Source: Escherichia phage RCIP0363. From it: a DNA stretch of 64,000 bases. Positions 36,749-38,448 of this stretch are shown one piece after another. Location: sequence record PV464739.1; one strand, 5' to 3'. Every line of letters begins with the position of its first letter. Within the stretch, counting starts at the first letter, position 1. Made by a program: the position numbers and the translations under genes. The notes beneath the pieces were generated by a model that saw nothing but the letters and a program-made list of their open reading frames with translations, was not told where the DNA came from and ran no database searches.

Positions 36749-37621
36749 CTATTTATTGAAATTAATATTATGGGTGTTAACAAGACGTTCACACATGGCG
36801 CTGTAAACACCATCATCGTGTATAGAGTCTTCGTGCTTCAGGCCGCTGATTGCGAAGCGTGTAAGCTTGACAATCTTAAGTTCGAACAGATGCCACATGT
36901 GGTAGTCTTCCGGCGTTTTCAACGTTACGCCATTAGGGAAAAGCACCTGCATAACCTGGCCTACCATCACAGCGTTATCGCCATAGACAGCGTTGCGCTC
37001 ACGGAAGGTTGCTGCCATTGCATCAAGAATATCGGCGGCAGTTGCCGGAGATTGTTCAATTTCCACAGCCTTAGTCTCTTCTTGCCCAGTTGCGCTTGGA
37101 TCAATTGCTAATTGTTGCACCACTTCACCTGCCTTGCAAAGATTAAATGTAAAAGCGATTTTATTTTGAGCAACGGAATTATAATACAATGCTTCATCTT
37201 GCATCCGCGCGAGTACGTCTTGTCGGTCGTCGAATACATTTATGATTCGATAATCGCCGTGCCGCAATGCGGCCGATAGCCATGCAGATTTCATAATAGT
37301 TGATGGACGTTTGTCGCCAGAGTCTCTCATCTTGATTTTAAATTCATCAAAAGGGAAAACATTGTCCAGACGTTCAAAAGTCACTTGTCTGTATTTTTCT
37401 GGCCTTGCAGTCCAATATTCAACCGCCTCACCGCGAAGAGATGCCGACTCTACTGCTGATGCAATGTGAGGATAGAACTGATCATAACCAATACCGCTGT
37501 GATAGTCATCATAGTCTGACAACGGACCTGCCACCTTGATGCGGTCTAAGCGCCAACGGTCATCAAACAGCGTTCCGTCAAGGTCGAATACGTTTAAGAT
37601 TTCGCTGTTTTTAATGCTCAT
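36749..37621 (-). CDS. HAD-superfamily phosphatase (polynucleotide-kinase-phosphatase-like) fused to an unknown C-terminal domain
   Basis: Motif I FDLDGTL (DxDGT) and downstream VFDDRQD. The N-terminal 170 aa parallel the T4 Pnk phosphatase domain pattern as recalled from memory. Confidence 0.6.
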   Translation of the reverse strand: MSIKNSEILNVFDLDGTLFDDRWRLDRIKVAGPLSDYDDYHSGIGYDQFYPHIASAVESASLRGEAVEYWTARPEKYRQVTFERLDNVFPFDEFKIKMRDSGDKRPSTIMKSAWLSAALRHGDYRIINVFDDRQDVLARMQDEALYYNSVAQNKIAFTFNLCKAGEVVQQLAIDPSATGQEETKAVEIEQSPATAADILDAMAATFRERNAVYGDNAVMVGQVMQVLFPNGVTLKTPEDYHMWHLFELKIVKLTRFAISGLKHEDSIHDDGVYSAMCERLVNTHNINFNK

Positions 37622-38448
37622 CCTTTTGATACTCCATCTTTAGCAACTGGATTGTTGGTGATTGGCATCGCACTCCAAAACTGGATGCGCAACTCTTCTT
37701 GCTGTGCCGTGGTATCCATCCAATCACGATACCAAGGGCAATGGGCTTTGCCATGACGAGGAAACGCGCATTTACCCATACCGATGCATTGCGGCTGTAA
37801 TAATGGATTTGCCCACGGGTGCACCTTGAGGACTTCCGCAACCATTGCGCGGAATACTTCTTGATACTCGCCTTGAGTGCGCGTACACAAGCGGTTTGAC
37901 GCCATCTGCTGCAGCGTGCGCAAGTTGAACTTTGCCATGATATGCGTTTGCATATTAGAAGGCAACACGGCACGTGCATCTTGAATCTCTGCGCCAGCCG
38001 CGCGAAGCTCTTGATACAAAGCATCGATAGTCGCCATCGCATCATCCCACTTCTCTGCTAAGTATTGCTTTTGGAGTAAATATTGGTGCTCTTCATCAGT
38101 CCCAAATGCTTCACATTGATCAATCAACTCTGGATTTTGGTGTGAGAATGCCTTCGGACGAATCGCATCAAAAGCAGAAGATTCCTGAGCGCGGCTGGTG
38201 CGTTCTTGATATGCGCCTGTGCGTGTGCGCACCATCTGATGGGTCATATTCTTTGAAACATCGGTGATGTCAAAGATATAGTCCACAAAGTCAAAAGGCG
38301 ATTTGATTGTATCAAGCATGTAGCGCCAGTGCTCTTGCTTCTCTGATTCCGTCATCTCAGAGACAGGCTTACCAGTCATGCGCGTGTTCTTTGTTTCCAG
38401 CAAAAGGTCAAGTGCATTTTGGGTGTATCGAATTAATTCAACTTTCAT
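37618..38448 (-). CDS. thyX: FAD-dependent thymidylate synthase ThyX homologue with non-canonical motif
   Basis: RTRTGAYQERTSR aligns with the ThyX signature RHRIASYNELSGRY, and NLRTLQQMASNRL...QGEYQEVFRAMVAEVLKVHPW aligns with the C-terminal ThyX block. The His of RHR and the motif Ser are both replaced by Thr. Confidence 0.7.
   Translation of the reverse strand: MKVELIRYTQNALDLLLETKNTRMTGKPVSEMTESEKQEHWRYMLDTIKSPFDFVDYIFDITDVSKNMTHQMVRTRTGAYQERTSRAQESSAFDAIRPKAFSHQNPELIDQCEAFGTDEEHQYLLQKQYLAEKWDDAMATIDALYQELRAAGAEIQDARAVLPSNMQTHIMAKFNLRTLQQMASNRLCTRTQGEYQEVFRAMVAEVLKVHPWANPLLQPQCIGMGKCAFPRHGKAHCPWYRDWMDTTAQQEELRIQFWSAMPITNNPVAKDGVSKG

Follow-up and report, generated by a model that had tools for sequence, protein, structure and literature searches.

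The Thy1 gene in the window (the 64-kb stretch of DNA from Escherichia phage RCIP0363 that was analysed) belongs to a large, previously undescribed subfamily that is essentially confined to phages and is coupled to a second flavoprotein gene. The changes that are constant in this clade are loss of Tyr91, loss of His53 (T. maritima ThyX numbering), and presence of the partner gene. We lean tentatively towards the pair supplying a C5-functionalised precursor for thymidine hypermodification rather than serving housekeeping dTMP synthesis, and slightly prefer this to an ordinary thymidylate synthase.

The Thy1 ORF encodes 276 amino acids from an ATG start, with boundaries exactly as given in an earlier reading made from the sequence alone (the sequence-only reading). 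That reading had described a ThyX homologue with an RTR...T signature, a description borne out by Pfam, by alignments to PDB chains, and by superposition of an AF2 model. The Pfam Thy1 profile (PF02511) is matched over its full length (E = 2.2e-29; 103 bits, cutoff 24.8), with residues 5–212 aligned to profile positions 2–191 of 191, and phrog_85 ('thymidylate synthase') matches with E = 1e-37. The AF2 model (pLDDT 83.5) has the ThyX fold, as it was placed by Foldseek onto T. maritima ThyX (1o26) with E = 6e-11 and TMt 0.73. The score against TIGR02170, the NCBI thyX equivalog model, is 78.9 bits, below the cutoff of 87.9. The protein is a member of the Thy1 superfamily that nevertheless falls short of a functional ThyX equivalog in several defining respects.

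Table 1. Features of the window discussed in the text.
Feature	Coordinates	Strand	Evidence
Thy1/ThyX-fold protein, partner-coupled variant subfamily	37618..38448	-	ORF, Pfam, TIGR02170, AF2, Foldseek
Signature R74-T75-R76 ... E82-R83-T84-S85-R86-A87	38188..38229	-	Single-sequence and profile alignments to PDB ThyX chains
Ile48, in the place of T. maritima His53	38305..38307	-	HMM alignment 'dtiksPfef' vs 'HGHETPFEH'
Putative metal site, four Cys (C188, C221, C227, C237)	37738..37887	-	Conservation and AF2 model
Partner flavoprotein, 331 aa, GxGxxG FAD fold, UGM/PPOX-like, phrog_4828	38974..39969	-	Fold-level likeness
HAD (PNKP-type) phosphatase with ~100-aa C-terminal domain	36749..37621	-	PF25109 E = 2e-8; phrog_4889
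SDR (short-chain dehydrogenase/reductase), in conserved five-gene block	36000..36683	-	adh_short E = 1e-31
VOC (glyoxalase/dioxygenase-superfamily) protein	35352..35903	-	Glyoxalase_4 E = 0.0035, weak, below cutoff; InterPro annotation in phage Mansfield
MazG-like protein, candidate dTTPase/dTMPase-type enzyme	26951-27544		17.5 bits, weak, below cutoff

The signature of the Thy1 ORF is RTRTGAYQERTSRA, and residues 71–87 (codons 38188–38238) read QMVRTRTGAYQERTSRA. The T. maritima equivalents of the signature residues are R78, H79, R80, E86, L87, S88, G89, R90, and Y91. A single-sequence alignment to T. thermophilus 6j61 and profile alignments (35 sequences) to 6j61, to T. maritima 1o26-type chains, and to M. 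tuberculosis 2af6/3gwc all place RTR on RHR and T84 on the motif Ser (T. maritima S88, M. tuberculosis S105). The motif His and the motif Ser are both Thr, as the sequence-only reading had it, with T75 on H79 and T84 on S88. The profile-HMM comparison that it had proposed as a check gave this same correspondence, and neither a canonical RHR...S nor any other RHR was found elsewhere in the 276-amino acid protein. Where ThyX has the motif RHR(X)7S, the ORF has RTR(X)7T.

The deviation in these alignments is wider than the two Thr substitutions, as Tyr91 and His53 of the extended ThyX motif are also lost, both changes having been missed by the earlier reader. Ala87 aligns with the tyrosine that follows the motif Ser (catalytic Y91 in T. 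maritima, Y108 in M. tuberculosis), Ile48 takes the place of His53, and Phe54 aligns with His59. The earlier remark that R, R, Y, and E are retained holds as worded, but the retained Y corresponds to T. maritima Y84 and not to the catalytic tyrosine. In a 2025 structural study, Tyr91 and Ser88 were called "strictly conserved" and critical in ThyX, mutation of Y91 in the T. maritima enzyme slowed flavin oxidation 1000-fold, and canonical His53 was described as stacking on folate or reduced flavin, its hydrogen bond to Tyr91 latching the reduced flavin (PMC11940539). The residues of RHR hydrogen bond to the phosphates and ribityl chain of FAD, and Tyr108 of the M. tuberculosis enzyme is a lid above uracil C5 and flavin N5 (reviewed in PMC6514825). 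The ORF keeps the dUMP- and FAD-binding residues: R74, R76, R86, R159, R177, R186, and Q71, equivalent to T. maritima Arg78, Arg80, Arg90, Arg147, Arg165, Arg174, and Gln75, respectively.

The ORF has in addition a C-terminal extension that is missing from T. maritima and M. tuberculosis ThyX. The extension is modelled confidently (pLDDT 87–95 across residues 200–260), and four cysteines connect it with the helix carrying R186 (T. maritima R174), forming a putative metal site. These cysteines (C188, C221, C227, and C237) are invariant among 35 close homologues. They are present or absent as a unit in the partner-coupled subfamily, with CCCC in 106 of 141 sequences and none of the four in the other listed patterns. 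The same four cysteines occur in some canonical RHR..Y representatives.

The RTR state is not unique to RCIP0363, as RTR predominates in the clade and is found in all 120 closest database homologues (at least 52% identity). After clustering at 50% identity, the 150 representatives had T at the His79 position in 75 cases, H in 31, S and Q in 10 each, and N in 8. We assembled a partner-coupled set of 141 distinct Thy1 sequences, which were chosen by gene neighbourhood, that is, by an adjoining flavoprotein gene. In this set, the position of H79 is T in 94, H in 29, S in 13, N in 4, and I in 1, and that of S88 is T in 59, S in 45, and A in 37. RTR does not define the partner-coupled clade, since 29 members keep RHR, and because both the H79 and S88 positions vary throughout the subfamily, the combination of RTR with a Ser-to-Thr change is not diagnostic. 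RTR...T is thus a real feature of the ORF, but not the distinguishing mark for which it had been taken. The position of Y91 is occupied by V (69), A (46), T (22), I (2), G (1), and Y (1), such that tyrosine is lost in 140 of the 141. Histidine is likewise lost from position 53 in 140, with Ile in 138. The His59 position is Phe in 136 and the His178 position Arg or Lys in 140.

R78, R90, R147, R174, and E182 are invariant in the 141 sequences, and R80, R165, Q75, and Q180 are nearly so. A change of substrate or loss of activity is unlikely, because the arginines that bind uracil and phosphate are among these invariant residues. It is improbable that Thy1 acts on a different pyrimidine nucleotide, either UMP, as PolB does, or dCMP. 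PolB provides a precedent for a ThyX homologue with changed substrate, and the active-site loop of Thy1 is altered; however, the equivalents of R90, R147, and R174, which read uracil O4 and N3 and the phosphate, do not vary, there is no sign of cytosine modification in relatives (the Pbunavirus adduct replaces T), and there is no nucleoside-antibiotic context. Still less probable, and hardly to be credited, is a dead enzyme, a ThyX relic retained in some structural or regulatory capacity. Its appeal is that residues called strictly conserved in canonical ThyX are missing, but all ligand-binding residues are under strong purifying selection among lineages only ~30% identical, gene order is conserved, and Thy1 is translationally coupled to the next gene.

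The partner flavoprotein had no match in Pfam (GLF and amine-oxidase families included) or NCBIfam and is not a UGM by sequence. A sequence-level PDB search matched its dinucleotide-binding motif and nothing more. Two sets of environmental loci show how closely this gene follows Thy1. With the flavoprotein as bait, at least 450 IMG/VR contigs were matched and 73 new loci were kept; Thy1 lies just downstream on the same strand in 70 of these, and three are truncated by the contig end. The Thy1 genes of these loci have RTR, RSR, or RNR, never RHR, and none has Tyr91. A second bait consisted of the Thy1 subgroup that has RHR but Val, Ala, or Thr for Tyr91 and matched at least 406 contigs. The flavoprotein gene is directly upstream, often abutting, in 74 of the 77 new loci kept, the remaining three being cut by the contig start.

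Counts of cultured-phage records are equal for the two genes (Pseudomonas, 292; Escherichia, 26; Serratia, 9; Xanthomonas, 6), and the pair also occurs in podophage-sized genomes of ~40 kb (Vibrio VA-RY-3 and PVA7). Matches to the flavoprotein were found as well in Cronobacter Ss1 and a Ralstonia phage. In the 206-kb Rhizobium phage TM2_3B, the pair is split by a homing endonuclease and an exonuclease and is followed by a HAD protein, dUTPase, and RNR. No flavoprotein neighbour was found within 5 kb of canonical phage ThyX genes (L5 gp48, phiCP39-O, HRTV-26, and Mgbh1, all having ..EH.. and RHR..SQRY) or of a Gordonia gene of the RQR..F type. The flavoprotein is nearly missing from cellular genomes: among one genome per species (185,579 species), it occurs on only six MAG contigs of 3–59 kb, each with a variant Thy1 downstream. 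The pairing is near-obligate and a defining trait of the clade. The adjacency may partly reflect common descent rather than independent selection, because all pair-carrying lineages have the same PolIII-alpha replication module in common.

With 98.5% identity to Escherichia phage FEC19, the window falls within Wifcevirus, a genus distantly related to the PB1-like Pbunaviruses of Pseudomonas. The Thy1 ORF shares 48.6% identity with the protein called "FAD-dependent thymidylate synthase" in PB1, F8, and 14-1. In the window, the minus-strand replication module has the order flavoprotein, a 148-amino acid ORF found only in Wifcevirus, Thy1, HAD, SDR, VOC, PolIII epsilon-like exonuclease, PolIII alpha, and helicases. 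The block of flavoprotein, Thy1, HAD, SDR, VOC, exonuclease, and PolIII alpha is kept down to about 30–45% identity. The SDR gene occurs in most environmental pair-carrying lineages, and the VOC gene co-varies with it in a co-occurrence table; both genes are missing from the Pseudomonas Pbunaviruses. In most lineages the HAD gene is conserved on the downstream side of Thy1. The two genes overlap at ATGA, which holds the HAD start codon and the Thy1 stop, indicating translational coupling, and both domains of the HAD protein have homologous counterparts in PB1 gp59. For its C-terminal domain, PDB and Pfam gave no match, and these searches did not support a likeness to all-alpha NTP pyrophosphatases that we had considered.

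Thymidine is modified in the Pbunavirus relatives. A 2025 preprint reported a novel thymidine derivative in the virion DNA of F8 and 14-1, where it replaces ~1/4 of T in TG context; its authors interpreted the nucleoside masses of 362 and 390 as a sugar alcohol derived from a tetrose and a cyclised aldopentose adduct, and noted that both phages are without any known hypermodification genes (PMC12191111). The masses are compatible with more than one type of linkage. By arithmetic, 362 equals T plus tetrose and also 5-hmdU plus tetritol minus H2O, and 390 equals T plus pentose minus 2H and also 5-hmdU plus pentose minus H2O. Wifcevirus, for its part, has been reported to be insensitive to most restriction systems, with no protection mechanism known. 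Site avoidance does not explain this, as the window contains 16 EcoRI, 6 EcoRV, and 4 EcoKI sites. The suggestion of a dUMP-modifying activity in the sequence-only reading has gained in plausibility from these relatives, whose Thy1 homologues are 48% identical, and from the coupling of the clade to a second flavoprotein.

In the mechanism that we propose, Thy1 would be a flavin-dependent, dUMP-binding enzyme of the ThyX fold that works jointly with the flavoprotein encoded just upstream. The C5 of dUMP would still be activated on the flavin. The later steps would differ. In canonical ThyX, the flavin-carbinolamine is broken down and the exocyclic methylene is then reduced by hydride, steps that depend on Ser88, Tyr91, and the His53-Tyr91 latch. 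The product would be a C5-functionalised precursor, for example 5-hydroxymethyl-dUMP or a sugar-derived adduct, and would feed thymidine hypermodification of the Pbunavirus-virion type. In Wifcevirus, the module would be extended by the translationally coupled HAD phosphatase, the SDR, and the VOC protein, and the resulting modification would account for restriction insensitivity. More guardedly still, the variant Thy1 and its UGM/PPOX-like partner may be a two-flavoprotein system, so far unrecognised but widespread among phages, by which thymidine hypermodification is initiated.

Several observations favour the making of such a precursor. The residues for late canonical ThyX catalysis are lost, the distribution is phage-restricted, the nearest fold of the partner handles nucleotide sugars and the T of relatives carries sugar-derived groups, phosphatase, SDR, and VOC genes accompany the pair, and Wifcevirus has its restriction phenotype. 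Known hypermodification pathways start with thymidylate synthase homologues. In every characterised case, the first step is the making of 5-hmdUMP by such a homologue, and thymidine nucleotides are depleted by dTTPase and dTMPase (PMC8989533). Candidates for this depletion in the window are the MazG-like protein, a weak match, and the HAD phosphatase. Full-text searches found no literature link between ThyX and phage hypermodification.

Other observations weigh against it. Thy1 and the flavoprotein are 94% and 97% identical, respectively, between F8 and 14-1 despite the different adducts of these phages. Divergence between the two phages is greater in ORF70 (57%), in phrog_4765 over its N-terminal part, and in the HAD protein (79%), and it is suggestive only, from these sequence differences, that the sugar-specifying gene may be among them. 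The TG pattern in Pbunaviruses needs a DNA-level, sequence-specific step, which is unlikely for a ThyX tetramer. The shared PolIII-alpha module, moreover, may account for part of the adjacency on which the pairing argument draws. Among window ORFs of at least 80 amino acids, Walker A motifs occur only in Dda helicase, a 556-amino acid primase/helicase-like protein, and a probably spurious 109-amino acid ORF; no relevant P-loop kinase (dNMP kinase or 5-hmU DNA kinase) was found among these ORFs or among the genes annotated in relatives. With no dNMP, 5-hmU DNA, or other small P-loop kinase in the window, the canonical 5-hmdU route cannot operate in its published form.

Several of these points bear on the second reading, which we rate as only slightly less likely, namely that Thy1 is an ordinary flavin-dependent thymidylate synthase of a divergent phage subfamily, converting dUMP to dTMP. 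The roles of His53, Tyr91, and Ser88 would then be taken by other residues or by the partner, for example as a reductase that keeps the ThyX FAD reduced, and hypermodification in related phages would be done by other genes. The conservation of every dUMP- and FAD-binding Arg, Gln, and Glu fits a plain synthase equally well. Thy1 is the only thymidylate synthase-family gene in the phage. ThyA, dNMP kinase, dCMP deaminase, and RNR are not among the annotated genes of a complete relative (Mansfield), no ThyA-like ORF was found in 3 Mb of related loci with an approximate query sequence, and no second thymidylate synthase was found within 56–135 kb of the Rhizobium jumbo phage genome. The neighbourhood of Thy1 is one of replication and nucleotide metabolism, dUTPase and RNR being close by in TM2_3B. 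About three-quarters of T in Pbunavirus virions is canonical, no special dNMP kinase was found, and a DNA-level enzyme is needed anyway for TG specificity. As to the missing serine, the S88A mutant of T. maritima ThyX reportedly retains activity. The motif Ser is dispensable in the family, and this mutant has been crystallised (3g4a). According to the records of PDB entries 5vwt and 5vwu, eukaryotic UGMs are reduced directly by NAD(P)H, which makes a reductase role for the partner flavoprotein conceivable.

An ordinary synthase is harder to reconcile with the loss of Tyr91 in 140 of 141 sequences, given the 1000-fold effect of its mutation in T. maritima, and with a score under the thyX equivalog cutoff. 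A housekeeping enzyme would not be expected to be phage-confined or to need a partner of UGM/PPOX fold, which cellular ThyX never has, and the SDR, VOC, and HAD phosphatase of the same block would have no part to play in making dTMP.

Few phages are used in therapy as widely as the Pbunaviruses, and their hypermodification was found only in 2025, its biosynthetic genes not being identified. The gene pair described here is a testable candidate that is conserved over hundreds of phage contigs, with a five-gene block in the E. coli relatives, and it makes the question of DNA modification in Pbunavirus and Wifcevirus directly testable. If the pair makes the modification, flavins would act on pyrimidines by a new chemistry, and the pair would mark genomes with hidden DNA modification. 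Thy1 would then be the first ThyX-family enzyme to release C5-hydroxymethyl or C5-sugar-alkyl dUMP instead of dTMP. The tetrose- and pentose-derived thymidines of Pbunaviruses and the restriction insensitivity of Wifcevirus would be explained, and many hundreds of uncultured phages would carry similarly modified DNA. If Thy1 is only a thymidylate synthase, ThyX catalysis can dispense with Tyr91, His53, and Ser88 given a partner flavoprotein, which would be relevant to the ThyX mechanism and to inhibitor design.

The likeness of the partner to UGM and protoporphyrinogen oxidase is at the level of fold, with 11–17% identity, and the partner is smaller (331 amino acids) and, unlike these enzymes, is always paired with a Thy1 gene. 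For Thy1, a precedent is PolB of polyoxin biosynthesis, a UMP-methylating ThyX homologue and thus a member of the family with a non-housekeeping role in modifying pyrimidine C5; PolB is bacterial, is encoded in a gene cluster for an antibiotic, and is not known to have a flavoprotein partner. The dUMP hydroxymethylases of the ThyA family (SPO1, PhiW-14, SP10, ViI, and M6; PMC8989533) are likewise phage-encoded thymidylate synthase homologues. As in the hypermodifying phages, close relatives of RCIP0363 package hypermodified T beside normal T, and candidate phosphatases or pyrophosphatases are encoded in the same genome. Thy1 differs from the ThyA-family enzymes in its unrelated fold and in its cofactor chemistry (flavin as opposed to Cys and folate); the dNMP kinase, 5-hmU DNA kinase, and aGPT-Pplase/AADT of these phages are absent here, and a hydroxymethylase activity of Thy1 is purely hypothetical. 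With canonical ThyX (PF02511, TIGR02170; for example T. maritima TM0449, M. tuberculosis Rv2754c, and mycobacteriophage L5 gp48), Thy1 shares the fold (TM 0.73), the order of conserved blocks, the arginines that bind dUMP and FAD, Gln75, and Glu182. It differs by the substitutions His53 to Ile, His79 to Thr, Ser88 to Thr, Tyr91 to Ala, and His178 to Arg, and by its four-Cys C-terminal extension, sub-cutoff equivalog score, obligate flavoprotein neighbour, and phage-confined clade.

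The flavoprotein and Thy1 genes of the window are separated by an ORF encoding 148 amino acids, the N-terminus of which resembles a signal peptide and begins MKRITGIALAATAILG. The protein has no match in Pfam, PHROG, or NCBIfam, and its distribution is limited to Wifcevirus relatives. At the other end of Thy1, the stop codon shares bases with the start codon of the HAD phosphatase gene (ATGA). This overlap suggests, at the level of sequence, that the Thy1 and HAD phosphatase genes are translationally coupled.

Coordinates of the features discussed
Feature	Sequence	Coordinates	Strand
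Four cysteines of Thy1 (C188, C221, C227, and C237)	window	37738-37887	
148-aa ORF between flavoprotein and Thy1 genes	window	38462-38908	-
Thy1 stop/HAD phosphatase start (ATGA)	window	37618-37621	
Seg-like homing endonuclease gene	Rhizobium phage RHph_TM2_3B (L121)	14909-15559	
Second, shorter Thy1-like ORF	viral contig L155	2483-3088	
Regions compared with Pbunavirus F8 (L047)	Pbunavirus 14-1 (L046)	6769-8073 and 10796-11680	

The flavoprotein/Thy1 pair is split in the 206-kb genome of Rhizobium phage RHph_TM2_3B, since a Seg-like homing endonuclease gene directly follows the flavoprotein gene. This genome also codes for a UDP-glucose 4-epimerase and a polysaccharide pyruvyl transferase. 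In one viral contig, the flavoprotein gene is directly followed by a second Thy1-like ORF of 202 amino acids that has no recognizable R.R motif, and a full variant Thy1 lies ~5 kb downstream. Two Thy1 homologues (P0157 and P0170) have long insertions of ~170 to 390 residues, which start with a cysteine, end in ...HNFFA.GILTHN, and directly precede the conserved THQLVRHR block. Judged by these sequence features, the insertions look like inteins within the active-site motif.

The thymidine adducts of phages 14-1 and F8 differ from each other. We compared the replication regions of these two phages, and the proteins that diverge most there are ORF70/gp71 (57% identity; 34% to PB1), the HAD protein (79% identity), and, over its N-terminal two thirds, the phrog_4765 protein adjoining the flavoprotein. 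These three proteins are candidates for sugar-specificity or anti-defence functions.

Short palindromes are used unevenly across the whole window. BamHI sites (GGATCC) are absent, with 13 expected, and observed counts are low for GATC (107 versus 247 expected), CCGG (78 versus 183), and GTAC (122 versus 247). GCGC (398 versus 183) and CAGCAG (68 versus 27) are in excess. Certain sites seem to be avoided, in spite of the reported insensitivity to restriction.

The Thy1 protein has four cysteines that join the catalytic-Arg helix to a C-terminal extension, which was modelled with confidence. By residue-pattern count, the quartet is complete in 106 of the 141 distinct partner-coupled Thy1 sequences, and each of the other patterns listed for this set has none of the four cysteines, making the quartet an all-or-none unit. 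The quartet may form a Zn or Fe-S site; to our knowledge, no such site has been described in ThyX. The ThyX proteins of T. maritima and M. tuberculosis lack the quartet, whereas some canonical RHR..Y Thy1 representatives share it with the Thy1 of the window.
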